Below are positions 25,636-42,251 of a stretch of 64,000 nucleotides of DNA, one piece after another. Both the position numbers and the translations under genes were made by a program. The DNA is from Candidatus Omnitrophota bacterium. Lineage in GTDB: Bacteria > Omnitrophota > Gorgyraeia > Zapsychrales > Fredricksoniimonadaceae. The notes under the pieces are model-generated. The model saw only the letters and a program-made list of their open reading frames with translations, was not told the DNA's origin and made no database searches. The stretch's first letter is position 1. Each line of letters starts with the position of its first letter. The stretch is from the NCBI GenBank assembly GCA_044225175.1, contig JBGAJA010000002.1, positions 146,917 to 210,916 on the forward strand. Reading direction: 5' to 3'.

Positions 25636-25638
25636 TTC

Positions 25639-27606
25639 ATGAAAAAACATCTAAATAAAAGTGCAAGTATTTTGGTCGCAACAGCTTTTATTCTTTGCCA
25701 AAATCTTCCTTTGTTAGCTCTAGCTCAAGAAGACATGTCTACCAATGCAGTTTCTGAAGATGAGCAAACACCTCAAGTAGAAAAAACAGAGCATATTAAT
25801 TTAGTTATAGGAGATGTTCAGTCCATTGAAACAAGCAATCTCACCAGAGTGGCTGTGACCAGTCCAGAGATTGTAGATATTTCTGATGCAAAATCCGACA
25901 AAGTTTTTGTAGTAGGCAAAAAGGCAGGACAAACAGAAGTTTTTATTTGGGATGATAATGGTAAACGAAGCATAAGTGTAGGCGTTGCCAGTGAAAATCT
26001 AGATGTTTTAACTTCACGTATAGAAGAAGTCATATCTAAGGCCCAGATCAAAGGAATTGTTGTTGAAAAGAATTTGTATGAAGGTAAGGTCATTCTCTCT
26101 GGTGCAGCCACCAAAGAGGATAAAGACATTCTTGATAGGATCATGGATCCCTACAGCGAGAAAATCATTAATCTCGTTAAAAGAGCTGTGAACGATGATT
26201 TAATCCAAATTGATTGCCAAGTGACTGAGTTAAGTCAAACACTAGTCAAACAATTGGGGATTAATTGGAGCAATGCTACAGGGTCTTCCAGTTCAACGTC
26301 TTCCTCAAATAATACCAATACCGTAAATTTACAACCTACGTATCAAGAAACACTTCCCACATCTAATGGTAAACCAGAAGACTGGTTTAAGATTGGAAAC
26401 TTTAATCGTACAACGGCATTGCAGGCCACCGTAGATGCTTTGATTACGGAAGGAAAGGGACGAATTTTATCTAAACCACGTCTAGTTGTTCTAAGTGGAA
26501 AAGAAGCAAGTTTCTTAGTTGGTGGGCAAGTCCCCATCCGCACAACGACATTTAATTCAACCAATAGTTCTTCTGGTGGGGCAGGAACAAGTCAGGAAAA
26601 TGTGACCTACAAGCAATACGGGGTCAACATGACAATCACACCAACCATCCGTGAAGGCAAGGTGGACATTGTTCTTAATGTACAAATCAATGATATTGAT
26701 AAATCGACTTCTGACTCTCAAGGGGACGTTGGTTTTATCTCTCGTGAAGCATCCACCCATTTATTTCTTGATGACAAGCAGACGATTATTTTAGCTGGAT
26801 TTATTAAACATTCCGATGGTCGTACTGTTAACCGAGTGCCTTTTTTAAGCAAAATTCCTGTTGTGGGAATGTTCTTTAGAAATGTGACCAACGGTAATCC
26901 AGATTCAGATACAGAAATGGTTATTTCTCTGACACCAACCATTTTAAAATCAAAGAAGATCGCCACAGAACAGACAGTGTTGCCTAGTAAACGAACAAAG
27001 AGTTTTGTTAAAGAAGTAGACACCAATTATGAAAAAGAAACAATTGATGGCCAACAATTGATTGAACCAAAGGCTGAAGAACCAAAGGCGCAAGAAAAAC
27101 CAGCTGCGGTTATAACTGCTACACCTCCAGTAGAACCTAAACAAAACTTTGGACCGCACAATGTCTCAGTAGAACCTAAAGCTACGGATACAAAGAAAGC
27201 CGAAGTAAGCGCTCCAGTTGCAGATGTTAAACCTATCGAAGAAAAACCTGTACAAATTATCAATCAACCACAGGATCCTTTGACAAGCTATGTCCGTTCC
27301 GTTCAAATGAGAATTTCACAGAAAATCACATATCCTTTTGAAGCTCTCCAAAATAATCAAGAAGGAACTGTGAAGCTTAGACTACGCATTCTTAAAGATG
27401 GATCTTTAGCAGATTGTGATCTTTTAGAGTCTTCCGGGAAAGATATTTTTGACAGGGATGCTTTGAATACCGCAAAAATAGTAGCTCCTTTTCAGGCTTT
27501 TCCAGAGAACTTGCATCAAGAAGATTTGATTTTGACAATTCCTATCGTCTATAATCAGCGAACAGAAGTTACGAATAATACACAAGCAGTCATGGCTTCT
27601 TATTAG
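25639..27606 (+). CDS. cpaC: Tad/Flp secretin (CpaC/RcpA family) with a C-terminal Pro-rich linker and TonB-C-like domain
   Basis: Signal peptide and a pilus-secretin N-domain. Secretin core 'LSKPRLVVLSGKEASFLVGGQVPI', 'VPFLSKIPVVGMFFRN', 'MVISLTPTIL'. The extra C-terminal 'EPKAEEPKAQEKP...' linker is followed by 'YPFEALQNNQEGTVKLRLRILKDGSL...SSG...AL', a TonB_C signature. Confidence 0.8.
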   Translation: MKKHLNKSASILVATAFILCQNLPLLALAQEDMSTNAVSEDEQTPQVEKTEHINLVIGDVQSIETSNLTRVAVTSPEIVDISDAKSDKVFVVGKKAGQTEVFIWDDNGKRSISVGVASENLDVLTSRIEEVISKAQIKGIVVEKNLYEGKVILSGAATKEDKDILDRIMDPYSEKIINLVKRAVNDDLIQIDCQVTELSQTLVKQLGINWSNATGSSSSTSSSNNTNTVNLQPTYQETLPTSNGKPEDWFKIGNFNRTTALQATVDALITEGKGRILSKPRLVVLSGKEASFLVGGQVPIRTTTFNSTNSSSGGAGTSQENVTYKQYGVNMTITPTIREGKVDIVLNVQINDIDKSTSDSQGDVGFISREASTHLFLDDKQTIILAGFIKHSDGRTVNRVPFLSKIPVVGMFFRNVTNGNPDSDTEMVISLTPTILKSKKIATEQTVLPSKRTKSFVKEVDTNYEKETIDGQQLIEPKAEEPKAQEKPAAVITATPPVEPKQNFGPHNVSVEPKATDTKKAEVSAPVADVKPIEEKPVQIINQPQDPLTSYVRSVQMRISQKITYPFEALQNNQEGTVKLRLRILKDGSLADCDLLESSGKDIFDRDALNTAKIVAPFQAFPENLHQEDLILTIPIVYNQRTEVTNNTQAVMASY

Positions 27607-27658
27607 AGAAGAATTGTAAAAGCATAGATATATGCAAAACTAGACTGATGACAAAACT

Positions 27659-27703
27659 AAAAACCGTGATACAATATTTTCTATTGTCCACGGTTTTTAG
27701 TTT
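27659..27703 (+). terminator. Rho-independent terminator after the secretin gene
   Basis: 10-bp stem aaaaaccgtg/cacggttttt with a 20-nt loop, followed by tttttagttttt. Confidence 0.5.
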
Positions 27704-27770
27704 TTGCAGTATCCTCCATTCTTCAGAGTCTCCGAGAAGAAAAGGCAATATCTAACATGAAAGATTAATT

Positions 27771-29930
27771 ATGTTGAGCAAAGTCATTACGGTTTTCAGC
27801 AATAAAGGTGGAGTTGGAAAAACTTTCGTTGCGGTCAACGTTGCAGCTGCTTTAACACTTAAAGGAAAGAAGGTGTTAGTTGTAGACTTAGATCTTCAGG
27901 CGGGTCAAAACATGGCCCGTATGTTTAACTTAACTCCTGCCCACTCTCTCGTCGATATTCTAGAAGCAATTAAAACCGACGACCATGAAATGGTCAAAAA
28001 ATTAGTTACAGCTCATTCTAGCGGACTTGATTTCCTTCCTGCTGTTATGAATCTTCGACAAGCTGGACGCATTACAGCTGACAATATACGGCATTTCTTT
28101 AAAATGGTTAGCTCCTTATATGATTATGTCATTGTGGATGCTGACAAAATGTTTACAGAAACGCTCATCAGTGTTTTAGACAATACAAATTTAATTCTTT
28201 TAGTCACAACTCCAGATATTCTAGCTGTTACCCAAGCGAAGAACAGCATCGATATTTTACAAAGTTTGCACTTTCCTTTGAAGATGTCCAGATTGATTCT
28301 AAATCGTGCGGAGAGTCGAGGGGGAGTTGCATGGCAGGAAGTCCAATCAGCCCTGCCCGCTGAAATATTCTCTTTGATCCCTTCTGATGGTAAAACGGTA
28401 GGATTGGCTCTCAACAGGGGCATTCCTTGCGTGATTGATAGTCCTCGCACAAGAGTTTCCGAAGTATTTTTTGAGATGGCAGACAAGCTCCAAGCTCACG
28501 ACATCTATGTAGCTTCCTCAGATGTGGTGAAAGTCCGAGCCAGCGATACGATTGCTGCTAAAGGAAATGAATTTTGGGAGAAATTTGGAATCGGTCTAGG
28601 AGGAGCTCCACAGGTTAAGGATGCTTTTAGAAAAGAAGAAGACGAAATTATCCGACTCAAAAAAGCCATCCATCACAAACTTGTTGATCGAATGAACTTG
28701 AAAAAGATTTCAACAGAAACGATTACAGACATTCAACAAGCGGCTAATATTCGAAAAGCCGCAGAAAAGATCGTAACAGATTTGCTGGCTGAAACATCTG
28801 GTTCCATCCTCTCATCCCATGAACAGCGTTCACGTTTAGTCCGTGAAATTGTTAATGAAGCCGTTGGGTTGGGTCCTTTAGAAGATTTTCTTGCTGATGG
28901 GGACATAACAGACATCATGGTGAATAATAAAGATGAAATATTCGTCGAGAAAAGCGGAAAAATACTTTTAACAAACAAACACTTTATTTCCAATGAGCAA
29001 GTTCGAGCAACCATCGATAGAATTATTGCTCCTTTAGGAAGACGTATTGATGAATCCACCCCCATGGTGGATGCTCGCCTTCCCGATGGTTCGCGTATCA
29101 ATGCCATTATTCCTCCGTTGTCTTTAAATGGTCCAATGATCACTATCCGTAAATTCTCCCAAGAAAGATATACGATTGATGACATGCTCAATAAATTTAA
29201 CTCCCTCTCTGCCCCCATGGCCGAGTTCTTAAATGTTTGTGTTATTGGGCGAAAGAACATGATTATCTCCGGCGGAACAGGCGCAGGAAAGACAACTCTT
29301 TTAAACATTGTTTCTCAATTCATCCCTGATAACGAACGCATCATTACAATTGAAGATGCTGCAGAGTTACGCTTGTCTAAAAGTCACTGGGCCCGTTTAG
29401 AATCCAGGCCTGTTAACATTGAAGGCAAGGGAAAGATCACGATCAGAGATCTTTTTACCAACACTCTTCGTATGAGACCAGATCGCATTATTATTGGGGA
29501 ATGCCGTGGACCAGAAGTTTTAGACATGTTGCAAGCGATGAATACAGGCCACGACGGGTCTTTAACCACATTGCATGCGAATTCACCAAGAGATGTTCTT
29601 TCGCGTCTTTCTTCGATGGTCTTGTTATCGGGAATCGAATTACCTATTAGAGCCGTTTATGAAATGACAGCTTCCGCCATCAACATTATTGTCCAAATTT
29701 CTAGATTCTCCGACGGCACACGTAAAATAACTGCAATCTCTGAACTCACTGGAAAAATGTTGGATACCATCCCTGAAATGAAAGACATTTTTGTCTTTAA
29801 GCATGCGGGCATTAATGCAGATGGTGTAGTTCTTGGAGAATATGTTCCAACAGGGTATGTCCCTAAATGCTACGATGATTTTATAACTCGCGGGCTTCCT
29901 CTTAACAAAGAGATATTCAATCCTTCATAA
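27771..29930 (+). CDS. Fused TadZ/CpaE-like (MinD/ParA-type) plus TadA/CpaF secretion ATPase, 719 aa
   Basis: N-terminal deviant Walker A 'SNKGGVGKTFVAVN' (MinD-like, no receiver domain). The C-terminal half carries CpaF motifs: Walker A 'GGTGAGKTTLLN', 'IITIEDAAEL', His-box 'MNTGHDGSLTTLHAN'. Confidence 0.8.
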   Translation: MLSKVITVFSNKGGVGKTFVAVNVAAALTLKGKKVLVVDLDLQAGQNMARMFNLTPAHSLVDILEAIKTDDHEMVKKLVTAHSSGLDFLPAVMNLRQAGRITADNIRHFFKMVSSLYDYVIVDADKMFTETLISVLDNTNLILLVTTPDILAVTQAKNSIDILQSLHFPLKMSRLILNRAESRGGVAWQEVQSALPAEIFSLIPSDGKTVGLALNRGIPCVIDSPRTRVSEVFFEMADKLQAHDIYVASSDVVKVRASDTIAAKGNEFWEKFGIGLGGAPQVKDAFRKEEDEIIRLKKAIHHKLVDRMNLKKISTETITDIQQAANIRKAAEKIVTDLLAETSGSILSSHEQRSRLVREIVNEAVGLGPLEDFLADGDITDIMVNNKDEIFVEKSGKILLTNKHFISNEQVRATIDRIIAPLGRRIDESTPMVDARLPDGSRINAIIPPLSLNGPMITIRKFSQERYTIDDMLNKFNSLSAPMAEFLNVCVIGRKNMIISGGTGAGKTTLLNIVSQFIPDNERIITIEDAAELRLSKSHWARLESRPVNIEGKGKITIRDLFTNTLRMRPDRIIIGECRGPEVLDMLQAMNTGHDGSLTTLHANSPRDVLSRLSSMVLLSGIELPIRAVYEMTASAINIIVQISRFSDGTRKITAISELTGKMLDTIPEMKDIFVFKHAGINADGVVLGEYVPTGYVPKCYDDFITRGLPLNKEIFNPS

Positions 29931-29953
29931 CCCCTTATGGGTGATGATTAGCC

Positions 29954-30304
29954 ATGTCCATTGTCAATCTGACCAAAGAAACAACATTAGCCAGTTATGT
30001 TGAAATTGCTGACAACCCTTTAAAAAGAATGACGGGACTATTAGGAAGAGTTTCGTTAGAGCAGGGGTATGCGCTTGTGATTACCAACTGCAGTAGCATA
30101 CACATGCTTTTTATGAAGTTTTCGATTGATGTTATTTTTGTCGACCAGAACAAAAGAGTGGTTGGTCTTGTTAAGAACATACAACCATTCAAATTCTCTC
30201 CTGTTTTCTGGAAATCTTCTTGCGCCATTGAATTGCCCGCTGGTACAATTGAGTCAACAAAGACGCAAATTGCAGACCAACTATCTGTTTGTACATCATG
30301 GTAA
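29954..30304 (+). CDS. DUF192-family small protein
   Basis: 'MTGLLGR...IHMLFMKFSIDVIFVD...AIELPAGT' matches the DUF192/COG1430 pattern as I recall it. Confidence 0.45.
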   Translation: MSIVNLTKETTLASYVEIADNPLKRMTGLLGRVSLEQGYALVITNCSSIHMLFMKFSIDVIFVDQNKRVVGLVKNIQPFKFSPVFWKSSCAIELPAGTIESTKTQIADQLSVCTSW

Positions 30305-30326
30305 AGGAAACCTTCTTCATTGACAT

Positions 30327-31730
30327 ATGGGTGTTGTTTATAAATTAACTCCAGAGATCAGTGCTTTTATTATTGAGCATAAACAGAGCAATCCAGCGAC
30401 GACATGTCAGGCATTGTCAGATATTGTTTTAGCTAAATTTGACCAGCACGTTTCAAAATCTTCGGTTCACGAACTTCTTAAACAAGCTCATGTCATTACT
30501 CCCAGGGTTCGCAAAGTTAAAGAAAAATTTCAGATTCCGACACACAAGAAACAACAAATTTCAAAAGCATTAGCTCCTTTTGTAGCCATTGGATCATCAA
30601 CACCTCCAAACATTTCCTTGGTGCAAACAGTCCCTACAAAAGTTGCTCCCCCTGAGATAATAGAAGAGATCATCCCAGAAGAACAACCCACTCAACAACC
30701 TAAAGAATACATATCTGGAAAAGGCGATATTTTTATTCAAAGTGCCCTATTTGATTTATCTAACAAACCCATTGTTGGGATCAGCGATTTCAACCAGATG
30801 GATTCCGTTGATCAAAATAAAATAAAAATGGAATGGGAGTATTTAACACAGCTAGTGTATGCCATTAAAATTGAGTTAGAAAGCGGATATGTTTTTTTCA
30901 TTGATCCCAGATTTCAGGGAATTTATGATTACAATCCCAATACACCAACATTGGCAGCTCCCATAGAACGAGCGGCCTATGAAGTGGCAGACTACATTTT
31001 AAATAATATTAAGCCTATAATTATTCGCAAATTTGATGCAAGTTGTTCAAATGATTTAACTTATGATATTTTTTCCGCTTTCCAAAACATCTCTCTTAAG
31101 AAGATTATCAAAATTGCGCTAATAGGGGCCAAAGATGAACAAATTGTTGAATTTAATCATCCCCTTGGAATTCAAAGAAATTTTATCATAGCAGTTGATT
31201 CACAAAACACTCAGTACCAATGGTTTATGAATAATTCAGCTGTGGAAACTACATGGAATTTGCCAATGAAGGATAATTCAACCTCTCCCACCGTAAGGCT
31301 CCTTAAAAAGTCTAACAAAATCATCATAACTAACTTAGAATCAATGACTTATGCAGAATCTGTTAAAATGTATGAGGAAAGACATCCAGGAGAAAGTCTT
31401 CAGTTAAGTGTAATTGAGAATCAAAAATCAGAACAGAGTACAGATTTCATTGTTTGGTTTAAAAATAAGCTTCAACAACGAGCATTAATGTTTTTTCCCC
31501 AGTCTTTTTCACGACAGGCGCTTGAAGATGCGACCCGCTTAGAGGGTTATGAACAAAAGATCGTCGACAAGAAGAAAAATTTGATAGAAATCAAAGTGCA
31601 TTTGAGGGTTTCTTCCAATCATCCTCAAATACAACAATTTCAAAGGGCTGCTGAAAATATTAACAGTCTAAATATTAGCGATTTTCAGGGAATGAAAAGA
31701 ACCGTAAAGTTAGATATTAGCAGCGAATAG
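30327..31730 (+). CDS. Hypothetical protein with an N-terminal HTH-like region
   Basis: 467 aa with no TM. The N-terminus 'LTPEISAFIIEHKQSNPATTCQALSDIVLAKFDQHVSKSSVHELLK' looks like a transposase-type HTH. The rest is unrecognizable. Confidence 0.35.
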   Translation: MGVVYKLTPEISAFIIEHKQSNPATTCQALSDIVLAKFDQHVSKSSVHELLKQAHVITPRVRKVKEKFQIPTHKKQQISKALAPFVAIGSSTPPNISLVQTVPTKVAPPEIIEEIIPEEQPTQQPKEYISGKGDIFIQSALFDLSNKPIVGISDFNQMDSVDQNKIKMEWEYLTQLVYAIKIELESGYVFFIDPRFQGIYDYNPNTPTLAAPIERAAYEVADYILNNIKPIIIRKFDASCSNDLTYDIFSAFQNISLKKIIKIALIGAKDEQIVEFNHPLGIQRNFIIAVDSQNTQYQWFMNNSAVETTWNLPMKDNSTSPTVRLLKKSNKIIITNLESMTYAESVKMYEERHPGESLQLSVIENQKSEQSTDFIVWFKNKLQQRALMFFPQSFSRQALEDATRLEGYEQKIVDKKKNLIEIKVHLRVSSNHPQIQQFQRAAENINSLNISDFQGMKRTVKLDISSE

Positions 31731-34183: not shown

Positions 34184-34200
34184 CATCCAGAAAGACATTC

Positions 34201-34539
34201 ATGCTTATGAAAAGATTATCCATTCAAAGAGGCCAAAGTTTAATCGAATACTCTATCCTGATTATTATTGTTATCGCTGTGTTTTTATCCATGAATAGCT
34301 ATTTTAAAAGAGGTATTCAAGGCCGCTGGAAAGCATCGATTGATGATTTAGGCGAACAATATGACCCGCGCACAACTAATTCTCTCATCAACTATGTCCT
34401 TAATAGCAGTTCGAATACTTCAATAGATGTGGTTCCAACGAGCAATGGAGATTTTTGGACCAACCGTGTGGACACTTCTTCTTCTTCCGAATCTAAGGGT
34501 GGACAAACGGTTGTAGGAGCCTTGCTCAACAAACTTTGA
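34201..34539 (+). CDS. Flp/TadE-family prepilin
   Basis: ...RG|QSLIEYSILIIIVIAVFLSM. Confidence 0.6.
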   Translation: MLMKRLSIQRGQSLIEYSILIIIVIAVFLSMNSYFKRGIQGRWKASIDDLGEQYDPRTTNSLINYVLNSSSNTSIDVVPTSNGDFWTNRVDTSSSSESKGGQTVVGALLNKL

Positions 34540-34545
34540 GAAGAT

Positions 34546-36171
34546 ATGTTTAATAGAAAATTCGTCAGATTCTTTAATGGCCCTTTCAAATCTCCACGCT
34601 CACAAAGCGGACAGGCTGTTATTGAAATTGCCCTTTTTGGCGCCATCCTGATCTTTTTAATAGGCGTTATTCTTCGCACTCATCTAAGTCATTCTTTTAG
34701 CACCAACCATCAAGTCAGGGCCATGAAGCTGGCTTTGCAGCAAAGTTATTTAGGCAGCGTCGGAAAGATTCCCAATAGTTCCAGAAACTCTGCCAGTATT
34801 CTCTTTATAGAAGACAGGCTCTCACCGGACTTAAATAAATTTGCAGCGATTGAAAGAAATCCATTTGTCGCCAATGGTTCAGGAACAATGACTGATCGAC
34901 TAAACTACCCAATCGATTTTGGGGAGGTAGGGCATAATCTTCCTATCATGGATATTTTTGTCAACGGCCAGCACTTCCCTTTGACGGTAGGGGCCTATGT
35001 CTTTAGAGTCATTTATCCGCAAAATGACACAGATGCAAAAGGAGATGCTTGTCCTCCTGATTTTATGGGGCCTGATCATGGTCCAGAATTTATCAGATGC
35101 CTTCGTCAGGAGCATGAATGGAAAGAAGGATCACCCACATTCTATCAACAGATTGTTAACGGAACACAAGACTATAACCCCCTCGCTTCCAAAGACAGTT
35201 GGGACCTATTACGCAATAATTGGGACAAAAATCGTCTCACTAAGCCTATTACGGGCAATGTTTTCTCGGATGATGTGGATGAAGGCATTATTCGTAATTA
35301 TATTGCCTGGCAGTGGAAGCCTATCAAAGGCGTAGGCTCAAGTCTTGACTTTGGTTCAGACGATAATCCTAACTATCCTTCAATGGACTTTTTAGGGAAT
35401 CTTAGAGAACAAACCGCTTATTATGTCAGTCAAAAACCTGTAGATAAATTATTGGCCATTTTAAGTTCACCTTCTCTGGCGTTTTATGAAATTAACCCTG
35501 GCGGCGGCGGTAGTTATGCAGCAGGAAACAGCGGGTACGTCTTATCGTTGACCGATGAATTGACTAATGCTCCAACAGGATTTAATTTTACAAACCCCAA
35601 AAGTTGTGACACAGGAAACGGTATGGGAGTTTTGTGCTTGACCCGCGCCCCATCGGCAGGAAATATTACAGGAGTTGTTGTTTTGGATAATCAGGCAGGA
35701 GATATTGATCTGGCCTATGATGATAAAACATCTCCTGGTCCTAAACCAGGTCTTATGCAGCAAATGGCCATTTACAGCTGGGTCGTTCCTCCGGATGGTA
35801 AAAAACAAGGAACATTCATGCAAATTAAAGAAGGAAAATTGTATAATCCTGAGACCCATCAAGTCGTGCGAAGCATTAGCAGCAAAGACCACGTGGATTT
35901 GATCTCACGCATGTTTCAACTGAGCAATAATACCCAGCGCTTTTGCAAGACAAGCATTATGTATGGATCAACTCCTGTTCCTTATTTGGCCGATCAAAGT
36001 CCTGATGCTAATCATCCTGTTCCAAATCCGGTTGAGGCATGTGGAGAGTGTAATAGTAAAAACATTAACAAAACTTGTTTTGATCCGGCCTCTCGGATTT
36101 TATTTATCAGGACATTGATAGGGGATGCAACCACACGCAAGTGGTTTACAGATGTAACCAAGGGATTATAA
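34546..36171 (+). CDS. TadG-like large pseudopilin (541 aa)
   Basis: Flp/TadE-like N-terminus '...SG|QAVIEIALFGAILIFLIG' followed by a roughly 480-aa domain. Its size matches TadG. Confidence 0.45.
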   Translation: MFNRKFVRFFNGPFKSPRSQSGQAVIEIALFGAILIFLIGVILRTHLSHSFSTNHQVRAMKLALQQSYLGSVGKIPNSSRNSASILFIEDRLSPDLNKFAAIERNPFVANGSGTMTDRLNYPIDFGEVGHNLPIMDIFVNGQHFPLTVGAYVFRVIYPQNDTDAKGDACPPDFMGPDHGPEFIRCLRQEHEWKEGSPTFYQQIVNGTQDYNPLASKDSWDLLRNNWDKNRLTKPITGNVFSDDVDEGIIRNYIAWQWKPIKGVGSSLDFGSDDNPNYPSMDFLGNLREQTAYYVSQKPVDKLLAILSSPSLAFYEINPGGGGSYAAGNSGYVLSLTDELTNAPTGFNFTNPKSCDTGNGMGVLCLTRAPSAGNITGVVVLDNQAGDIDLAYDDKTSPGPKPGLMQQMAIYSWVVPPDGKKQGTFMQIKEGKLYNPETHQVVRSISSKDHVDLISRMFQLSNNTQRFCKTSIMYGSTPVPYLADQSPDANHPVPNPVEACGECNSKNINKTCFDPASRILFIRTLIGDATTRKWFTDVTKGL

Positions 36172-36173
36172 AA

Positions 36174-36425
36174 ATGAAAAACAAAACAGCCCAATCCACG
36201 ATTGAATTTACTTTTGCCATGGTTGCGGTTGCTTTGTTGATTTTTTCTTTGGTCAAAACTTTTCGATGGGTGGGTATGGATTACGCCCAAAGCGCCTATC
36301 TTCAAGAACAGTCTAATATTTTTGTTCATAACGATAAGTGTGAACAAAGAGGCGACTGCTTTAGTTTAAACGCTGAAAACAATACGCGTGGACAGCGATT
36401 AGGTGCTTTTACAAGGAAGTATTAA
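36174..36425 (+). CDS. TadE-like pseudopilin
   Basis: MKNKTA|QSTIEFTFAMVAVALLIF (TadE 'QSTIEF' motif). Confidence 0.55.
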   Translation: MKNKTAQSTIEFTFAMVAVALLIFSLVKTFRWVGMDYAQSAYLQEQSNIFVHNDKCEQRGDCFSLNAENNTRGQRLGAFTRKY

Positions 36426-36426: not shown

Positions 36427-39400
36427 ATGGATCAAAACACTAAGAAGAAAAAATATCGCGGACTATTATCATCATTTCAAAGAGGCCCCCAAGGGCAGAC
36501 ATCTTTGATTATGATTTTGATATTGGCTGCGGCTTTTATTTTTTATGCGATTTCCTTAAATTGGAGCAAAATTTCCAGTGTTAAAACAACGTTGTGGATG
36601 GCGAGTGTCACGGCCTCTGCTCAATCGGCGTCGATGTTTGCCAGCTATGGCGAAAGGGTCATTCAAGAGCAGCTTATTCCTTTAGGAGGCATTGAATACA
36701 ATAACGGGAATCTTAGGCATGAAGAAAATGGCCTAGGGGTCCTTATCTTTAAGATATTTATTATTATCGTTGTAGCTATTTTAACCTGGTATATGGGTGG
36801 GTATCCTGCGGCTATTCTTGTGGCAGCCATGATGACAACAAGTTTGGTCATTGAATACATGGTCATTCGGCCCATGACATTTTCGATGTGGAACAAGCTG
36901 CAGCAAAACCTTCAGCCTGTCGACCAATTCCGTGAGTCTGCAATCACGACGGGGATGCAGCAAATCGTCACCGACAGCGTAACTGTGCCGGACCGCTTTG
37001 ATTTAAATGTGAATGGTCTTTGGGGTGCATCGACAAATCCTTCGGACCCCATCAGTCGTTTTGCTTTGTTTTATACCGAACGATTAAAAGCCGTCAAACC
37101 ACCAGATACGGCAGGGATTGAAGCCTTTCAAACAGGCCTTAATAATTTAATCACTCAACCAACACCAGCTAATATCATGGGTCCAACACTAGAAGAGCCG
37201 GGACTTGGGTTTACCCCCTATTGCACAGGAAAAAATTCTTCCGACCCACAATGCAATCCTCAGTGCACAGGAATTTTCAATAGACCTGCACTAGGTAATA
37301 AATCTTCTGGGTTTGGATGGCGGTATACCAAAGATACTGACCAGATCACTTATTATGTTCCAGGACAATGTATTCAAGCTAATGGCACAAAGTATCGTCT
37401 GCAATATAATAGCGCAAAAGAAGGAGGCCCTAAAAAAGCTGATCCTAATGATCCAACTAATTCTTTTCGATACCGTTTAGGCTTCGACGACGAAATAGGA
37501 AAAAGTTTAAATAGCGACAAAACCAATGGCTCAATAGATGGCTCTCCCGTTTACCATCCGGCTACATCTTTAAAAAATGGACTTGTTTTTCCCATGCTTA
37601 ATCAAATGTATAAGATAGATCCTTCTATCTATGAGCCCGTGGCTCTTGGAGCTTTGAGTGCTGATCTTTCTAAAGAGGCTCAAGCGCAGTATTCAAAATT
37701 ATATACGGACAGCGTCACGCCCATGGCTAACTATTTGGCAGGTGATGTTGATTGCGCACAAATGAGAAACTCATCCGAAGGCTTTTATTGGAAAAAAGGG
37801 GCAGACCGCTATTGCTCAGGATTTGTGCAAAGCTATCCTTTAGAAGTAGCAAGTCTAGCCAATAAAAATGTCAGCTACGCTCCATCCACAGCAAGCCAAG
37901 AGCCTAATTATCATTGGCCATATTATCAGTGTCAATACATGCTTAACTCCCAAGGAGAAATTCAGCAATGCGCAGACAGTCCTAATAAGAAACTTTGGCC
38001 TCAAGACCGCATGGACAATTTGGTGTATCAAATCAACGAATTTATTCAATTTAACAATACCATTAAAGGGATGGACAAAAAAAGTTTGGTTGCTTCTTTT
38101 GATCAATGGTATCAAACTGTAATGCCTTTTATTGCTCCTCGATGTTCAGAAGGAAATAGTAATACGCCACTAGATCAATTTGTTTCGGTCAATTTTAAAC
38201 ACATGACGGTCTTTACAAGTGATGCGGCTATTTGCAATCCAGATGCTCAAGGATACATGTATCAATGGATTTATGATTTGCAGAATTGGCAGAAGCTGAT
38301 TAAAGACCCTGCGGACCCTAAAAAAGGGTGGATCAATCAAAGTTTTGGGGACCCAGCAAAAGATTTATGCAGTGGAAAACTTTCGAATTCGGACCCTATG
38401 AACCCAGGGATTGCAGAGTGTTTGGAGAATAAATCCATCTATACGAAACAATTGGATAAGTGCGATAATAATTTTCCTAAACCTACAGAACAGGATGAAC
38501 ATGGGCAATGGATTTATAGCAATGTGTATTTAAATCCAGAGTGCATTGAAGTCATGTACCATCGTCAAACCCAACCATCCAGATTTTTGACCACGTTATC
38601 AGGAACATTTACAAATATTCCTTCATTCCCGCCGCCTTCAGATTTTAAGTTTCCTGTGAATAATAAAGAAACCTATTTCGCTATTAAAGGCTGGGTTAAA
38701 GACAACCGTATCTTAATGGATGCAGTGTATAACAAGAAAATCGTTGTTCAGAATTTGTATAAGTATGCTCAGCAATCCGCTAGTCTTTTTGAAGAAGGGG
38801 CCCAAGAGTTTAGTCGATTCTTAGGTCTGGGAGCTCCGGCCTATGCACTGATGGATAGTGTTTCTGATCGCATAAGTTCGATCAAACGATTGCCTAGTTT
38901 TGCTATCTATGGGTGGAAGGACCATAAGGGACCTATTGGCAGTAATACCAATAATGAATTGTGGCATTTGGCACGTATTGAAGTGGCCCAGCCAGGTCGA
39001 TTGCCGTGGATTAAGATTACCAAACACGGGGCTTTAGGTTCTAATGTGCGCTATACCTATACCGATGGGCAGGGGGATGTTTTGGTCAGAGCCACCCGTT
39101 GGGACCAAAGTTTCGATGGAGGAATAGCCAATTTTGCTAATGGTCTTAAGATATGGAAATTTAGATATGGGAATCCTAAATATAAGGATACGGACACAAA
39201 CACCGGCGGAGAATTAGAGAATATGTGTATGGAGAAAGATACCGGTGCGGGAGGAGTAATATTTGGATATGGTCTTACTTCAGACACCAGAGCTGCATTG
39301 CAAGCGAATTTGCCTCATAATCCTTCTGTTCAAAGTAATTCTTCGGAAGGCAAGGCTTATTCAACGGCTTTCATGCTGAATTTAGATCCAAGAGCCAGCA

Positions 39401-39807
39401 CAGATAAGCTCACATCTCAGATCAAAGATCCAGTGCCTGATAAAAACACGTGCCATTTCGCAGATAAATGCGGAACATTAAATGACTATGCCGCATGCTG
39501 TGCGAAAGCGCCCTCGGGATATTATGGCAAAGACTGGCAGCAGTATTGTCAAAAAACAAATTTGGCTCGATGCCAGAAAAACAAGCAAATCAAAGAGATT
39601 ATTGATAATTTAAAAGACACAGAAGGTTGTTTTTATGGGGCTACAGATTTATTAAACACAGGAGTTCAATCTATTTCAGGGGCGCACTTTGGTGTCCCCA
39701 ATGAAAAACCCTATCACTTAGGTATATTCTTTCACAGTTCAGCAGACGCAAAAAAACAGGGAGTTTTTACAAGGGATACGTATAATGATCATTCCCAATA
39801 TGACTAA
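36427..39807 (+). CDS. Giant pilin-like protein (1126 aa): Flp/TadE-like N-terminal helix, a second TM segment, and a large Cys-rich extracellular domain
   Basis: N-terminus '...QG|QTSLIMILILAAAFIFYAI' after an AAGGAAG RBS. Second hydrophobic segment around aa 120-150. About 30 Cys, including a 'CCAKAPSGYYGKDWQQYCQKTNLARCQ' cluster at the C-terminus. Confidence 0.5.
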   Translation: MDQNTKKKKYRGLLSSFQRGPQGQTSLIMILILAAAFIFYAISLNWSKISSVKTTLWMASVTASAQSASMFASYGERVIQEQLIPLGGIEYNNGNLRHEENGLGVLIFKIFIIIVVAILTWYMGGYPAAILVAAMMTTSLVIEYMVIRPMTFSMWNKLQQNLQPVDQFRESAITTGMQQIVTDSVTVPDRFDLNVNGLWGASTNPSDPISRFALFYTERLKAVKPPDTAGIEAFQTGLNNLITQPTPANIMGPTLEEPGLGFTPYCTGKNSSDPQCNPQCTGIFNRPALGNKSSGFGWRYTKDTDQITYYVPGQCIQANGTKYRLQYNSAKEGGPKKADPNDPTNSFRYRLGFDDEIGKSLNSDKTNGSIDGSPVYHPATSLKNGLVFPMLNQMYKIDPSIYEPVALGALSADLSKEAQAQYSKLYTDSVTPMANYLAGDVDCAQMRNSSEGFYWKKGADRYCSGFVQSYPLEVASLANKNVSYAPSTASQEPNYHWPYYQCQYMLNSQGEIQQCADSPNKKLWPQDRMDNLVYQINEFIQFNNTIKGMDKKSLVASFDQWYQTVMPFIAPRCSEGNSNTPLDQFVSVNFKHMTVFTSDAAICNPDAQGYMYQWIYDLQNWQKLIKDPADPKKGWINQSFGDPAKDLCSGKLSNSDPMNPGIAECLENKSIYTKQLDKCDNNFPKPTEQDEHGQWIYSNVYLNPECIEVMYHRQTQPSRFLTTLSGTFTNIPSFPPPSDFKFPVNNKETYFAIKGWVKDNRILMDAVYNKKIVVQNLYKYAQQSASLFEEGAQEFSRFLGLGAPAYALMDSVSDRISSIKRLPSFAIYGWKDHKGPIGSNTNNELWHLARIEVAQPGRLPWIKITKHGALGSNVRYTYTDGQGDVLVRATRWDQSFDGGIANFANGLKIWKFRYGNPKYKDTDTNTGGELENMCMEKDTGAGGVIFGYGLTSDTRAALQANLPHNPSVQSNSSEGKAYSTAFMLNLDPRASTDKLTSQIKDPVPDKNTCHFADKCGTLNDYAACCAKAPSGYYGKDWQQYCQKTNLARCQKNKQIKEIIDNLKDTEGCFYGATDLLNTGVQSISGAHFGVPNEKPYHLGIFFHSSADAKKQGVFTRDTYNDHSQYD

Positions 39808-40243
39808 AAAGAACTTTAAGAACAATCAGGGAGCGAGTTTGATTGAGTATGCTTTTCTGATTATTCTTATTCTCTCAGCCATGTGGGTCATGAAAGACAT
39901 GATCAGTCGTGGAATTTTTGCCAAGTACAGGCAATCTGGAGAAAGTTTTGGATTTGGTCGTCAGTATGATGCTAAACGCACGAGTGTGTGCAGGCAGGAC
40001 GTCAAAAGTTATAAAGACGATGGTACAGTCAATGAAGTAAGCGAATTTTATGATGAAGATTGTTATCAAACCCGTGTTAGGCGTCCGGCGAGTTTCAATT
40101 TAGAAGCACCGGGAACCTGGAACACCGAAGGCGGATGCCCTGCATGTGACCCCGGCAACACATCGGATTCCAAAGCATGCTTTAAATGTGAGGATGACAT
40201 TAAAAAACAATGCGCTGTTGATCACGCATATTGTTTGCAATAG
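39800..40243 (+). CDS. Flp/TadE-family prepilin with a Cys-rich C-terminal domain
   Basis: ...QG|ASLIEYAFLIILILSAM; C-terminal 'CPACDPGNTSDSKACFKCEDDIKKQCAVDHAYC'. Confidence 0.55.
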   Translation: MTKKNFKNNQGASLIEYAFLIILILSAMWVMKDMISRGIFAKYRQSGESFGFGRQYDAKRTSVCRQDVKSYKDDGTVNEVSEFYDEDCYQTRVRRPASFNLEAPGTWNTEGGCPACDPGNTSDSKACFKCEDDIKKQCAVDHAYCLQ

Positions 40244-40295: not shown

Positions 40296-41153
40296 ATGAT
40301 TACACTTATTTTATTTTTGATTTTTATTTCTTTTGCAGCATTGACGTATAGCCTTCTTCCCATCTTGACCAGAGGCGCAACAGACATCAATCAGCGTCAG
40401 GCCCAGCAGGTCTTAAATAATGCAGATCTTTATTTGCAAGATGCAGATTTGCAAAAGGCCCAACGCATTACGCTCGTCATGCCCGCTGTTCTGGCCATTT
40501 GTGGTTTCTTGTTTTTTCCAGAAAATCTTCGCGTTCCAGGGGCTATTATCGGAGTGATCGTTGGAATCATTATCCCGCGTATTTATGTTTCTAGCCTTAT
40601 CAGCAAAAGAAAAGAAAAGTTTAATGATCAGCTGGTTGATGCTCTGATGATTATGTCGAGTTCTTTTCGAGGGGGGCTTTCTTTGGTGCAGGCGATTGAG
40701 GCGGTCGTTGATGAAATGCCAGATCCTGTTAAGCGAGAGTTCGGAATTGTTTTGGGAGAAAATAAAATGGGCGTTTCTTTGGAAGAAAGCTTGACGCGTC
40801 TACAGGTTCGCATGCCATCGGTTGCCCTTCAACAAATGATTACAGCCATCTTGCTTGCTCGTGAAACAGGCGGTAATCTGCCTGTGATTTTCTCAAGGAT
40901 TGTCAGCACCATTCGAGAACGAAAGAAAATTGAACAAAATCTGAAGACATTAACCATTCAAGGAAAGATTCAAGCCGTTGTCATGACCCTCCTTCCTCTG
41001 TTCTTTGTGATGGGTGTTAGTGCGACGAATCCAAAGTTTTTTGATGTCATGTTTCGTCTCCCCGAAGGCAGGCAGATGTTAATGGTTTGTGTTGTTCTAT
41101 GGGTTGTTGGGGCTATATTAATTTGGAGAATCAGCAAATTTAAGGAAGTTTAA
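40296..41153 (+). CDS. tadB: Tad/Flp pilus inner-membrane platform protein TadB (T2SS-F family)
   Basis: 285 aa, polytopic, with a GspF-like cytoplasmic domain. It sits in the Tad locus. Confidence 0.75.
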   Translation: MITLILFLIFISFAALTYSLLPILTRGATDINQRQAQQVLNNADLYLQDADLQKAQRITLVMPAVLAICGFLFFPENLRVPGAIIGVIVGIIIPRIYVSSLISKRKEKFNDQLVDALMIMSSSFRGGLSLVQAIEAVVDEMPDPVKREFGIVLGENKMGVSLEESLTRLQVRMPSVALQQMITAILLARETGGNLPVIFSRIVSTIRERKKIEQNLKTLTIQGKIQAVVMTLLPLFFVMGVSATNPKFFDVMFRLPEGRQMLMVCVVLWVVGAILIWRISKFKEV

Positions 41154-41156
41154 TTT

Positions 41157-42062
41157 ATGTTAACCATGGCCATGTTGTTAGTTTTTCTAGCTATTTTTGC
41201 GGCGATCTTAGCTTTCATTCCTTTTGATAGTCGTCCCACATTAAAGTTGGACATGACATTGACGCCAAGCCCCTTTGGACAAGAAATACAGACCAAAAAG
41301 AAAAGCCCTCTTTCCGGTCTAGTAAGTCTTTTAAGAAAGGCGGCTTTTTTTAATAAGCCTTTTACCAAGTCGGATTTAGGACAAAGAATATTCAGAGATT
41401 TGTCCTTAAGTCAGACACCCATATCGACGGAAGAATTCCTTTTGATAAAACAAATTTTGGTTGTCGTCCTTATTTTGATTTCTATCAAGATCAATCCAGA
41501 CCCCTCCTTCTTAATGTTTTCTGTTTTAATGGCGGTTGCAGGTGGGTATATTCTTCCCGAATTCTGGCTACGTATGCGAGTTAAAAAAATTAAAGAGTCC
41601 ATTTTGCGTGATTTGCCAGATACGGTTGATCTTTTAGGTCTTTGCGTGAACGCTGGTCTTGATTTTATGATGGCCCTTCGTTATGTGGTGGAAAAGTCAC
41701 AACCCTCAGTCATCATCGAAGAGCTTAGGATCATGATGCAGGAAATCAATGTAGGTAAGCCTCGCAGGGATGCTCTGCGGGATTTATCTAGGAAATATGA
41801 AATGCCGGATTTGGCGACCTTCTCTCGTACCTTGATCCAAGCAGATCGCATGGGTACCTCGGTGTCAGAGGCCCTTAATATTCTCTCCGAAGATATGCGC
41901 GAAACCCGCTATCGCAGAGGCGAAGCCATGGCGCTCAAAGCCCCTCTTAAAATGCTTATTCCCCTGTTATTGTGCATTTTCCCAGTTGTGGCCCTTTTAG
42001 TCGCCGGCCCCATCTTCCTAGACTTCATGCACAACAACCCTCTACAGAACTTAGCCAAATAA
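41157..42062 (+). CDS. tadC: Tad/Flp pilus inner-membrane platform protein TadC (T2SS-F family)
   Basis: 301 aa, a paralog of TadB, in the locus position expected for tadC. Confidence 0.75.
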   Translation: MLTMAMLLVFLAIFAAILAFIPFDSRPTLKLDMTLTPSPFGQEIQTKKKSPLSGLVSLLRKAAFFNKPFTKSDLGQRIFRDLSLSQTPISTEEFLLIKQILVVVLILISIKINPDPSFLMFSVLMAVAGGYILPEFWLRMRVKKIKESILRDLPDTVDLLGLCVNAGLDFMMALRYVVEKSQPSVIIEELRIMMQEINVGKPRRDALRDLSRKYEMPDLATFSRTLIQADRMGTSVSEALNILSEDMRETRYRRGEAMALKAPLKMLIPLLLCIFPVVALLVAGPIFLDFMHNNPLQNLAK

Positions 42063-42083
42063 AAAGGTGTCAGACACCTTTTT
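42061..42083. repeat. REP-like palindrome copy 1: AAAAAGGTGTCAGACACCTTTTT
   Basis: Exact 23-mer, one of four copies. Confidence 0.75.
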
Positions 42084-42192
42084 ATTGACTATTTTTAGAT
42101 GAATAATTATCATTTTGTCATCTGATTCTCCCCATCAGAAGCAATCCATACCCCAATTGCTAAGTAATTTCAAAAAATCAAAATTCCTATCC

Positions 42193-42215
42193 AAAAAGGT
42201 GTCAGACACCTTTTT
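42193..42215. repeat. REP-like palindrome copy 2
   Basis: Identical 23-mer, 37 nt upstream of the RAYT start. Confidence 0.75.
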
Positions 42216-42251
42216 GACATTATCTAACCTCCCCGTTCAAGAAAGGTCAAT

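Follow-up and report, generated by a model that had tools for sequence, protein, structure and literature searches.

A large cysteine-rich prepilin-like protein of the Omnitrophota Tad cassette as a candidate divergent TadG/CpaL/KilN-class tip subunit

Gene order of the Tad cassette

The window (the whole stretch of 64,000 nucleotides that was analysed, from a Candidatus Omnitrophota contig) contains a Tad cassette in the order CpaB, secretin, TadZ-CpaF, eight Flp-like pilins, three Glu+5 minor pilins around the gene under study (hereafter the target), TadB and TadC. The coordinates of these genes, and of the segments distinguished within the target, are given in Table 1. No prepilin peptidase was found within the window by Pfam search.

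Table 1. Genes of the cassette and segments of the target protein (positions in the window).
Feature	Position	Strand	Basis
RcpC/CpaB, secretin with TonB_C domain, TadZ-CpaF fusion ATPase, DUF192 and a 467-aa protein of unknown type	24811..31730	+	Pfam
Eight Flp-like prepilin genes, all [GA]|Q...E+5, 51–134 aa	31944..34539	+	N-termini; weak Class_IIIsignal and TadF matches
541-aa Glu+5 minor pilin ('SGQAVIEIALFG'), candidate tip-complex partner	34546..36171	+	N-terminus, orthologues
Small Glu+5 TadE-like minor pilin ('AQSTIEFTFAMV')	36141..36425	+	N-terminus, conserved orthologues
Target, 1126 aa, a TadG/CpaL/KilN-like candidate for the apical minor-pilin-like subunit	36427..39807	+	ORF, translation, homologous clusters, synteny
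Basic cytoplasmic leader (aa 1–23), ending at putative prepilin-peptidase site G23|Q24	36427..36495	+	Motif counts; cleavage inferred
Alpha1-like helix (aa 24–86): TM1 (aa ~24–45) and conserved amphipathic extension	36496..36684	+	Motif statistics, AlphaFold, hhalign
Beta-hairpin (aa 89–98)	36691..36720	+	AlphaFold strands E89–92, E95–98
Predicted hydrophobic helical hairpin (aa ~100–148), uncharged G/S/T/W turn	36724..36870	+	Hydropathy, AlphaFold
Acidic loop (aa 188–207; 'PDRFDLNVNGLWG...D'), DxDxDG-like, putative Ca2+-binding site	36988..37047	+	Conservation
Variable Cys-rich middle region (aa ~244–740): conserved Cys framework, many lineage-specific insertions	37156..38646	+	Column occupancy, Cys columns
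Two long helices (aa 747–817) and conserved five-stranded beta-sheet (aa 825–893)	38665..39171	+	AlphaFold, conservation
C-terminal Cys 'knot' (aa 1013–1050), insertion specific to close subfamily	39463..39576	+	Alignment occupancy
Conserved C-terminal module (aa ~1061–1105): long-helix end and two beta-strands	39607..39741	+	Conservation, AlphaFold
152-aa Cys-rich Glu+5 minor pilin ('QGASLIEYAFLI')	39785..40243	+	ORF, N-terminus, orthologues
TadB and TadC platform proteins, directly 3' of the pilin block	40296..42062	+	ORFs; T2SSF domains in orthologous genes

The reading frame of the target is uninterrupted from the ATG at 36427 to the stop at 39807. An alternative GTG start at 36403 would lengthen the protein by 8 aa; the sequence AAGGAAG lies 8–9 nt 5' of the ATG, and homologues start at the equivalent position. 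At both ends the gene adjoins or overlaps a pilin gene: the small TadE-like pilin, likely starting at ATG 36174 (83 aa), stops 1 nt short of the target ATG, and the 152-aa minor pilin overlaps the target 3' end by 23 nt.

Homologues of the target were found to co-occur with Tad loci, and the gene order (550-aa pilin, ~85-aa pilin, target, ~130-aa pilin, TadB, TadC) was kept in all eight loci with enough flank, namely the window, L001, L002, L005, L010, L012, L018 and L019, which include both near and distant members. Orthologues of the 541-aa minor pilin, a protein that shows no paralogy to the target, measure 553–684 aa and keep their position in L001, L002, L005, L010, L013, L018 and L019. 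Those of the 152-aa pilin measure 137, 128, 121 and 118 aa in the equivalent slot of L001, L002, L018 and L019, respectively, and a Glu+5 ORF was also observed at this position in L005, L010 and L012. Identity between orthologues was 33–39% for the target, the lowest of the locus, compared to 78–85% for the ATPase and 61–74% for TadB and TadC. The target is a constant and until now unnamed part of the Omnitrophota Tad cassette.

Behind the cassette lies a giant ORF of at least 6820 aa in the window, 19,166 aa in L001 and 25,126 aa in L019. No giant gene was present in the fetched flank of L002 or L018.

Protein family and N-terminal region

Homologous sequences formed 592 clusters at 50% identity, 291 of them at E ≤ 1e-30. 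Their lengths range from about 900 to 1900 aa, conserved motifs are distributed along the whole chain, and all named relatives are hypothetical proteins of Candidatus Omnitrophota. In Pfam, NCBIfam and PDB profile searches no family exceeded the threshold, PF13400 included, and for ten members the PF13400 and NCBIfam TadG models gave no match even at E ≤ 10. When RHS/YD repeats were considered, a single sub-threshold RHS_repeat stretch was observed (aa 866–893, E = 0.022, 15.6 bits with the cut-off at 22), in one of ten members.

The AlphaFold model (pLDDT 75.5, pTM 0.77) begins with an N-terminal helix and a beta-hairpin; two long helices and a five-stranded sheet come later in the chain, and the strands near its end are conserved. 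Foldseek comparison of this model with PDB and BFVD gave no match, pilin folds included. The best rows include the alpha-pore-formers Cry6Aa, YaxAB and SmhB at statistically meaningless values (E ≥ 0.66, probability ≤ 0.06, TM ≤ 0.27), and an alpha-pore-forming toxin of the ClyA/YaxAB/Smh/Cry6A type is not supported by the fold comparison (E 0.8–6.3). Homology to a non-pilus family was also looked for and none was found. The preliminary description of this DNA had assigned the protein to no known family; this holds for sequence and fold databases but overlooks the TadG/CpaL/KilN class, which is the most alike by position and N-terminus.

Two ORFs encode the protein in L010 and L012, and the C-half begins with a canonical Sec signal peptide and an AxA site. 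The occurrence of N- and C-halves as separate ORFs would suit a misannotated gene or a two-gene fusion in decay, a reading to which practically no probability is given and which is effectively ruled out: the frame is intact, hundreds of clusters are full-length, and the motifs extend along the entire chain. The split forms, too, consist of intact ORFs that overlap at ATGA, and their signal peptide is a proper one; they are regarded as natural fissions and not as decay. The target gene is not a pseudogenised fusion but a genuine, intact and conserved ORF.

The prepilin-type N-terminus reported earlier, together with its lack of Glu+5, was confirmed, the G|Q site being kept in homologues. All strings quoted at that time were also recovered ('RGPQGQTSLIMILILAAAFIFYAI', aa 19–42; the second hydrophobic block, aa 106–147; 'CTGKNSSDPQCNPQCTG', aa 266–282; the Cys string, aa 1013–1050). 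According to motif statistics, glycine occupies position −1 in 141 of 145 members and glutamine position +1 in all 145, while position +5 is Ile or Val in 138, mostly Leu or Met otherwise, and never Glu. The target itself reads G|QTSLIM, with Ile at +5, and does not conform to the Flp/TadE/TadF motif G|xxxxE[YF]; in contrast, all 11 other pilin-like ORFs of the array follow [GA]-x4-E-[YFI], with the [GA]|Q site in common. TM1 is continued by the amphipathic extension 'LN.GR..Q.KT..T.AAN..AS.LAS.MASYG', and both fall within the 65-residue N-terminal helix of the AlphaFold model (H21–86). In comparison with TadE/TadF pseudopilins and Flp pilins (PF07811, PF04964), the target has the leader, the G|Q site and the hydrophobic helix in common with the 11 co-encoded prepilins (hhalign P = 1e-4), whereas it lacks Glu+5 and Tyr/Phe+6, is about ten times bigger and carries an extra hairpin.

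A second transmembrane segment had been proposed previously. A hydrophobic block does exist after TM1, but it is long enough for two helices and is modelled as a hairpin (H104–121 and H128–145, low pLDDT). By hydropathy it is present in 145 of 145 members, with a median span of 60 aa, and no such block follows TM1 in any of 26 canonical TadG sequences, 22 of which have a single hydrophobic segment and the others one extra short segment elsewhere. Judged by these hydropathy profiles, the predicted hairpin is a family-defining trait without counterpart in canonical TadG. Such a hairpin would hinder membrane extraction and passage through the secretin, and it has no precedent in TadG/CpaL.

The hydrophobic segments raise the question of a static inner-membrane part of the Tad machine, anchored by TM1 and the hairpin, whose periplasmic domain would scaffold or align the platform, CpaB and the secretin without ever leaving the cell. 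Three hydrophobic helices in 145 of 145 members would be hard to extract, the target lacks Glu+5 and is constant and single-copy in the cassette, and the Sec-exported C-half of the split forms would be just as consistent with a periplasmic protein; Aggregatibacter TadG is reportedly an inner-membrane protein. However, the machine parts of the locus (ATPase, TadB/C) are 61–85% identical as against 33–39% for the target, which varies two-fold in length, a mere anchor would not need an invariant G|Q site, and the gene sits among minor pilins and not among platform genes. Carbohydrate-binding (CBM60) and Ig-like inserts, present in some relatives, also make little sense in the periplasm, and this role is considered rather unlikely.

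Cysteine-rich ectodomain

The number of cysteines in the target, previously put at roughly 30, was found to be 22, all located C-terminal to aa 149. Across the family the median Cys content is 3.6%, and because the count is even in 112 of 142 members (p = 2.5e-12), the ectodomain cysteines are probably disulfide-bonded. In 81% of relatives a Cys occupies the position of H98 of the target and co-varies with one at the R875 position (phi = 0.96), the pair being lost jointly in about five unrelated lineages. This covariation suggests that the beta-hairpin is tied to the beta-sheet.

Within the acidic loop, D189, D192, [DN]194 and [DN]196 are each conserved in 100% of 72 members, D207 in 93% and G197 in 72%; from its motif, the loop is a putative Ca2+ site. 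In some relatives, Big_7 (Ig-like) or CBM60 modules were observed.

The region of aa 747–893 was modelled with pLDDT mostly between 61 and 93 per 10-residue block, and its five-stranded sheet carries the motif 'IYGW.D...WH..R.E...TRWD'. The C-terminal Cys knot of the preliminary description is present as a string but is not a family feature, as its columns are occupied in only 11–15% of the 72-member alignment; it is found in P0002–P0007. In the C-terminal module, the strands E1080–1089 and E1099–1103 reached pLDDT values of 85–91. By analogy, this module may be a counterpart of the CpaL C-terminal complementing strand (PMC12918778).

Comparison with known tip proteins and proposed role

Large minor-pilin-like tip proteins of the TadG/CpaL/KilN type form a known class (PMC12075869, PMC12918778), with TadG/CpaL as the apical subunit of Tad tips (PMC12918778). 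Like members of this class, the target is encoded in a tad locus together with TadE/TadF-like minor pilins, and its N-terminal helix is prepilin-like, position −1 being a small residue and position +5 Ile/Val and not Glu; authentic TadG of Burkholderia and Sulfitobacter has Ile at this position. As in that class, no other protein of the pilin block is as big or as variable, and the target combines long helices with a beta-scaffold that has no PDB homologue and a conserved C-terminal strand. A post-TM motif lies in register with that of TadG (LN.GR...K....AAN.A against LD.GK...R....ADA.A), although the conserved Asp of TadG is replaced by Asn in the target family. Comparison of the target profile with PF13400-positive TadG N-termini by hhalign gave a suggestive value below significance (probability 39–39.5%, P = 3e-4, 44–58 ungapped in-register columns), confined to the N-terminal ~50 residues, which are largely transmembrane; the local Glu+5 pilins gave no alignment with TadG (P = 0.013).

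The differences are also considerable. There is no significant profile match, the hhalign similarity being limited to the N-terminus; with TadG at ~420 aa and CpaL at ~600 aa, the target is two to three times bigger, and its family has the extra hydrophobic hairpin after alpha1 and 22–83 cysteines. The ectodomain shows no relationship to vWA-type or other known TadG C-domains.

GspK is an apical subunit without Glu5, and PilY1 has a Ca2+ site, of which the DxDxDG-like loop of the target is reminiscent. The target resembles PilK/GspK in lacking Glu5 and PilY1/PilC as a candidate tip-associated adhesin of about 1000 aa, but it belongs to a Tad system and not to a T4aP or T2SS machine. PilY1/PilC is a separate Sec-exported chain, whereas the target is a single chain with a prepilin N-terminus; instead of a beta-propeller, a mixed alpha/beta fold with long helices is predicted by AlphaFold, and no Pfam, PDB-sequence or Foldseek match between PilY1/PilC and the target was found. 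Tip versions in cis (CpaL/GspK) and in trans (PilK plus PilY1) both exist (PMC12918778). The fused target would be of the cis-like kind, and the split forms of L010 and L012, with their Sec-exported C-half, of the trans-like kind.

On this basis, the target is with some reserve favoured as a divergent apical tip subunit and adhesin of the TadG/CpaL/KilN class in the Omnitrophota Tad pilus, a class whose functional analogues are GspK and the pair PilK plus PilY1. Speaking against it are the sub-threshold profile searches, the shortness of the TadG similarity, the extra hairpin and the absence of a prepilin peptidase gene from the window. It is most likely a large disulfide-rich pilus-tip protein contacting a host or prey cell. 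The tip adhesin proposed earlier gains indirect support from the translationally coupled Glu+5 minor-pilin block in every locus examined and from the G|Q site without Glu+5, the absence of Glu+5 favouring and not opposing a tip role. The probably disulfide-bonded ectodomain, the position as the fastest-evolving gene of the locus, and the Big_7/CBM60 modules in relatives point in the same direction, while the other earlier suggestion, a secretin-associated component, received no specific support.

As such a tip subunit, the protein would be inserted into the inner membrane by an N-terminus made up of a basic leader, the invariant G|Q motif and TM1, which would serve as alpha1N, with the remaining chain outside the cytoplasm, where the cysteines would form disulfides, and prepilin peptidase would cleave after G23. 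Because it lacks Glu+5, it could presumably only be the first, top subunit of a filament. Together with the three Glu+5 minor pilins translated alongside it (541 aa, ~83–94 aa and 152 aa) it may form an initiation or tip complex, onto which the TadZ-CpaF/TadB/TadC motor would polymerise Flp pilins. The complex would then be pushed through the CpaC secretin, so that the ~100-kDa ectodomain would come to lie at the distal tip. The model suggests a pilin-like core split in sequence, in which alpha1 and the beta-hairpin (aa 24–98) may pair with the C-terminal sheet (aa 825–893 and 1080–1103), with the large variable Cys-rich module inserted between the two halves. This fast-evolving module, with its conserved Ca2+-type loop, may bind the host or prey surface, and the hydrophobic hairpin (aa 100–148) would be an extra membrane-embedded element. 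Membrane insertion, the split core and the binding module draw on the observations described above, whereas cleavage and tip assembly are proposals that go beyond them.

Omnitrophota are tiny and probably predatory bacteria. Their Tad system has been linked to predation or parasitism (PMC10066038). In Bdellovibrio, tadG is required for prey invasion, and the tad loci resemble that of the target in having a TadZ-TadA fusion and no TadV (10.64898/2026.07.08.737194). These reports count in favour of the tip reading.

In the T2SS, contact is made by GspK-I-J. The target might correspondingly cap a secretion pseudopilus in a GspK-like manner, its ectodomain docking cargo of a T2SS-like exporter, such as the adjacent giant protein, and not prey. 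The giant ORF after the cassette in the window, L001 and L019 would suit this function, and West-Roberts et al. have described it as a T2SS-like locus that is conserved ahead of giant genes, with a matching association reported in a 2026 preprint. However, a secretin would scarcely let folded proteins of 7,000–25,000 aa pass, RcpC, TadZ and eight Flp-type pilins are Tad-specific parts typical of extended pili, and two loci have no giant gene in the fetched flank. The association may also just reflect co-regulation of an attack apparatus, and the secretion reading is regarded as improbable.

Within the favoured reading of a pilus-tip protein, the hairpin might insert into the host or prey envelope, archaeal or bacterial, on tip contact, the tip then being a structurally new fusion of apical pilin and adhesin that serves as a membrane-breaching or anchoring device; the chance of this is judged to be low. 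Slightly lower still is that of a translocon- or alpha-pore-former-like device whose hairpin enters the prey membrane and aids contact-dependent killing. The hairpin is universal, its short turn is uncharged (G/S/T/W), the segments before and after it are extracytoplasmic and disulfide-linked, and the least-bad Foldseek rows include alpha-pore-formers; moreover, Myxococcus Tad pili mediate contact-dependent killing and a predatory or parasitic lifestyle has been proposed for Omnitrophota. The values of those rows (E ≥ 0.66) are nevertheless meaningless, plain inner-membrane anchoring accounts for the hairpin equally well, and the device is purely inferred. If envelope insertion did occur, the pilus tip could possibly prepare the way for the adjacent giant proteins.

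The open reading frame and its Tad cassette

The 1126-aa open reading frame singled out in the preliminary description is real, with an intact, uninterrupted frame from ATG to stop. The motif AAGGAAG was found 8–9 nt 5' of the ATG, and an alternative GTG start at 36403 would add 8 aa. All four strings quoted from the protein were recovered, at aa 19–42, 106–147, 266–282 and 1013–1050; the cysteine count, put at about 30, was corrected to 22, every one located after residue 149.

The gene lies within a 17-kb single-strand Tad cassette, about 4 kb past dnaA-dnaN-gyrB-gyrA. A single nucleotide separates its start from the preceding stop, and its last 23 nt are shared with the next gene.

Table. 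Coordinates of the Tad cassette and flanking features in the window
Feature	Position	Strand
Probable replication origin	~12500–21100	
SurA-like PPIase (Rotamase_2)	23790–24785	
RcpC/CpaB	24811–25635	+
Secretin fused to TonB_C domain	25639–27606	+
TadZ(ParA)-CpaF fusion ATPase	27771–29930	+
DUF192	29954–30304	+
467-aa protein without assigned family	30327–31730	+
Eight small Flp-like prepilins	31944–34539	+
541-aa pilin-like protein	34546–36171	+
~83–94-aa pilin-like protein	end 36425	+
1126-aa protein	36427–39807	+
152-aa pilin-like protein	39785–40243	+
TadB and TadC	40296–42062	+
REP/RAYT-like element	42062–43131	
IS200-like Y1 transposase ORF (PF01797)	42252–42935	
Giant ORF	from ATG 43540, open at window end 64000	+

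The gene order was kept at every other-genome locus with a family member and enough flank, namely L001, L002, L005, L010 and L012 and the distant L018 and L019: TadZ-CpaF, DUF192, a 370–550-aa protein, six to eight pilins, a 550–680-aa pilin, an ~85-aa pilin, the family member, a ~120–150-aa pilin, TadB and TadC. The family member occupied the same slot each time. Given this strict synteny, the protein is a core, single-copy component of the cassette rather than an accident of one genome. A pseudogenised fusion was rejected, and beside the intact frame an artefact or decaying fusion is scarcely credible.

Several features of the cassette were recorded separately. TadZ (ParA/MinD-like) and the CpaF/TadA ATPase form one 719-aa protein, a fusion recurring in all Omnitrophota loci fetched with gene calls. 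The TonB_C domain of the CpaC/RcpA-type secretin spans aa 562–639, and this fusion was also present in L002 and L018. Because each of the eight tandem Flp-like prepilins (51–134 aa) is kept as a distinct orthologue across loci, the array suggests a filament that may be heteropolymeric or switchable, rather than recent gene duplication. In every locus the ATPase gene was followed by DUF192 and the 370–550-aa protein, which has no Pfam match and only a faint HTH_32-like N-terminus. The SurA-like PPIase gene, directly upstream of CpaB, was noted as part of the conserved locus by West-Roberts et al. No prepilin peptidase was found within the window. The frequency of promoter-like sites did not exceed that in shuffled sequence. 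Terminator-like sites numbered 17 versus 10.9 ± 3.5 and were mostly REP-like palindromes, and the pilin block contained no informative site.

A word-indexed search yielded 11 relatives, among which the only Pfam domain was Big_7 (PF17957), in P0011, and the only named protein was a hypothetical protein of 'Candidatus Omnitrophica'; a second, profile-based word-indexed search added no further relatives. When 1.84 billion cluster representatives were searched exhaustively with a profile, 592 proteins passed E ≤ 1e-3, of which 291 also passed E ≤ 1e-30; among the 150 matches listed of the 592, most were ~900–1900 aa long. All named members were hypothetical proteins of Candidatus Omnitrophota or Omnitrophica. 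Twelve loci were found by a scan of GTDB genomes, six in Omnitrophota MAGs and six in MAGs labelled 'uncultured Planctomycetales'.

No Pfam or NCBIfam model reached threshold in the 1126-aa protein. When it was analyzed together with 10 close and 36 long distant relatives, these libraries gave only sporadic Big_7, CBM60 and Y_Y_Y hits and one sub-threshold RHS_repeat (aa 866–893 of the 1126-aa protein, E = 0.022). PDB searches with 10- and 72-member profiles reached a best E of 0.77, and BLASTP against the 541-aa neighbour indicated no paralogy (E = 0.44). The protein was rejected as an RHS/YD protein, as an alpha-pore-forming toxin homologue and as a PilY1 homologue.

Comparison of the N-terminus with TadG

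Across 145 members the N-terminus followed the motif [KR]-G-Q-[VAT]-A-[LIV]-[IV]-L-I-L..A.ALIFYAV[ST]LN[LW]GR..Q.KT.T..AAN..AS.LAS.MASYG[EQ], numbered from the putative cleavage site G23/Q24 (a slash marks cleavage). Q+1, N+22 and S+46 were invariant, while G-1 and K+30 were each present in 141/145. Position +5 was Ile or Val in 138 members and Glu in none. The reported absence of Glu+5 was confirmed, the 1126-aa protein alone having Ile at +5, unlike the 11 other pilin-like ORFs of the window, all of which read [GA]/Q-x-x-x-E-[YFI]. The leaders before the cleavage site were long in relatives P0013–P0155 (median 21 aa, maximum 56); many distant members shared a semi-conserved start, M-[IF]-[RQ]-x-[LI]-N-K, which was absent from the subfamily of the 1126-aa protein.

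As reference, annotated TadG proteins were taken from tad loci on plasmids of Burkholderia pyrrocinia and Sulfitobacter dubius, with PF13400 confirmed in the Burkholderia family. Genuine TadG N-termini (RG/AVAIIVGLALAVMIGFVGLALDLGKLYVTRSELQNSADACAL) aligned without gaps to the family consensus, with G0, A3, I4, I5, L8, A11, F16, L21, D/N22, L23, G24, K/R25, R/K30, A37, D/N38 and A41 in common. In profile–profile comparison, the family matched TadG with 39% probability (P = 3e-4) over 44–58 columns of the N-terminus only, and the co-encoded Glu+5 pilins with P = 1e-4; the latter pilins against TadG gave P = 0.013 and no real alignment. On the in-register alignment and these comparisons, the N-terminus is therefore prepilin-like and of TadG flavour. 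At 39% the match lies below significance, and membership in PF13400 is not formally established.

Hydrophobic hairpin, ectodomain and split forms

A second hydrophobic block was observed in all 145 members, ~39 residues past TM1; its span had a median of 60 aa, and in 140 members no hydrophobic segment followed it. The preliminary description had recognized this block but read it as a single TM segment, whereas its length fits two helices, and AlphaFold placed a hairpin there (H104–121 and H128–145). The turn between the helices is uncharged and rich in G/S/T/W. In contrast, canonical TadG had a single hydrophobic segment in 22/26 sequences and a comparable block after TM1 in 0/26.

Of 142 members, 112 had an even number of cysteines in the mature chain (p = 2.5e-12; median 3.6% Cys), which indicates disulfide pairing outside the cytoplasm. 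The positions of H98 and R875, occupied by Cys in 81% and 79% of members, respectively, co-varied with phi = 0.96. About five unrelated lineages have lost both residues jointly, and a single sequence is discordant; additional co-varying column pairs were 443–515 and 1085–1105. The 98–875 pair would tie the conserved C-terminal beta-sheet to the beta-hairpin located past the N-terminal helix. It also places both ends of the hydrophobic hairpin on the oxidising side. A tip-mounted device that inserts into membranes through the hairpin has a slim probability. The C-terminal cysteine 'knot' pointed out earlier is present in the 1126-aa protein but not family-wide, its columns being filled in only 11–15% of 72 relatives, and is a subfamily insertion.

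Conservation was highest at aa 21–80, 141–220, 340–356, 441–463, 521–540, 661–680, 821–915 and 1061–1105. Directly past the hairpin lies an acidic loop with D189, D192, [DN]194 and [DN]196 each at 100%, followed by G197 (72%), [FWY]199, G200 and D207 (93%). It matches the DxDxDG calcium-loop pattern and constitutes a putative Ca2+ site.

AlphaFold with 10 sequences gave a model too poor for use (pLDDT 50.9), while 72 sequences yielded a mean pLDDT of 75.5 and a pTM of 0.77. The model opened with an N-terminal helix of 65 residues and a beta-hairpin. The hydrophobic hairpin, predicted at low confidence, came next and led into a region of mixed alpha/beta structure, after which came two long helices (aa 747–817), a five-stranded sheet (825–893), a 43-residue helix and two conserved terminal strands. 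The predicted fold appears to be new, with no solved relative.

The family was naturally split at two loci, into ORFs of 730 aa and 804 aa that overlap at ATGA in L010 (6927–11530) and of 926 aa and 981 aa in L012 (7941–13692). The N-part retained its prepilin-like end together with the hairpin and the domain at aa 150–280. The C-part, which contains equivalents of aa ~527–985 and the conserved C-terminus, opened with a Sec signal peptide of canonical type (MRKVLIQFGLCWSVLHLGAAAWA/QT in L010, MRYLWFLIMLIIIPAAASA/EG in L012), direct evidence for export of the C-half. The splits also show two modules able to work in trans.

At three orthologous loci the 1126-aa protein was the most divergent cassette product, with 33–39% identity, compared with 78–85% for TadZ-CpaF, 61–74% for TadB/TadC, 39–76% for the pilins and 43–55% for the 541-aa neighbour. 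Occasional long relatives carried Big_7 Ig-like domains, and one a CBM60 carbohydrate-binding module; both are surface-adhesin features.

Candidate apical role and genomic surroundings

By the GspK rule, a pilin without Glu+5 is placed only at the top of the filament; lacking this residue, the protein would be confined there. It would probably be processed at G23/Q24 and could form an initiation/tip complex with the three neighbouring Glu+5 minor pilins. It would be exposed at the tip of the pilus, where its variable, disulfide-rich and probably Ca2+-binding ectodomain may touch host or prey.

We lean, with modest confidence, towards a highly divergent, enlarged apical subunit of the TadG/CpaL/KilN class. 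The position and N-terminus are those of this class; the sequence model and the second hydrophobic block set the protein apart from it. The earlier tip-adhesin proposal accordingly survives as the most likely reading, without the PF13400 match or the single TM of TadG, and the statement that no known family is matched holds at Pfam and NCBIfam thresholds but not for the protein as a variant of the TadG/CpaL/KilN kind. A static inner-membrane or periplasmic component of the machine, which would suit a core cassette protein with two hydrophobic blocks, is unlikely.

Myxococcus KilL/M/N, homologues of TadE/F/G, form a heterotrimeric pilus tip, and TadG has been proposed as the tip backbone in many bacteria (PMC12075869). 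In Tad pili the analogue of PilK/GspK is TadG/CpaL, which gives the C-terminal complementing strand in cis, whereas PilY1/PilC give it in trans (PMC12918778). The fused and split family forms echo these cis (CpaL/GspK) and trans (PilK+PilY1) arrangements of apical pilin and adhesin, and add a data point on the construction of type IV filament tips. In Bdellovibrio, a TadZ-TadA fusion and tad loci without TadV were reported, and tadG was required for prey invasion (10.64898/2026.07.08.737194); the ATPase fusion and the lack of a prepilin peptidase gene are common to the window cassette.

Omnitrophota are ubiquitous, uncultured and ultra-small, and are thought to be predators or parasites; the main genomic clues to their attack on other cells are the Tad cassette and the giant genes. 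Their Tad systems are known through TadB/C and RcpA and have been tied to predation or parasitism (PMC10066038). West-Roberts et al. placed the cassette, which they termed a conserved 'T2SS-like locus', upstream of giant genes and noted its other proteins as poorly conserved. Prior publications named only generic parts (secretin, ATPase, TadB/C, RcpC), treating all other products as hypothetical proteins of poor conservation, and the present family is not described in the cited literature on Omnitrophota, Myxococcus, Bdellovibrio or Tad tips. The largest cassette hypothetical now represents a phylum-wide family of 592 clusters at the TadG/CpaL/KilN position, distinguished by a predicted new fold, a conserved Ca2+-type loop (motif only), a hydrophobic hairpin unique to it and the natural occurrence of both fused and split forms. 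This makes it a specific candidate for the molecule that contacts the host, relevant to research on Omnitrophota predation and on the tips of type IV filaments.

The giant ORF, of at least 6820 aa, begins ~1.5 kb downstream of TadC, and giant genes were placed likewise in L001 (19,166 aa) and L019 (25,126 aa); their link to the Tad cassette has been published (West-Roberts 2023; 2026 preprint). A GspK-like cap docking cargo such as this neighbouring giant protein is improbable compared with the apical subunit.

Gene orientation flips between 12548 and 13299, which is also the site of the minimum in cumulative GC skew; dnaA, dnaN, gyrB and gyrA follow. With the probable origin there, the Tad cassette is origin-proximal, as is the similarly sized Tad locus of Velamenicoccus archaeovorus LiM, at 12.4–29.8 kb of its genome (PMC10066038).

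The palindrome AAAAGGTGTC[A/T]GACACCTTTT occurred in four copies, at 42062, 42194, 42912 and 43111 (chance expectation 0), flanking the Y1 transposase ORF; this REP/RAYT-like element is an insertion that separates TadC from the giant gene.
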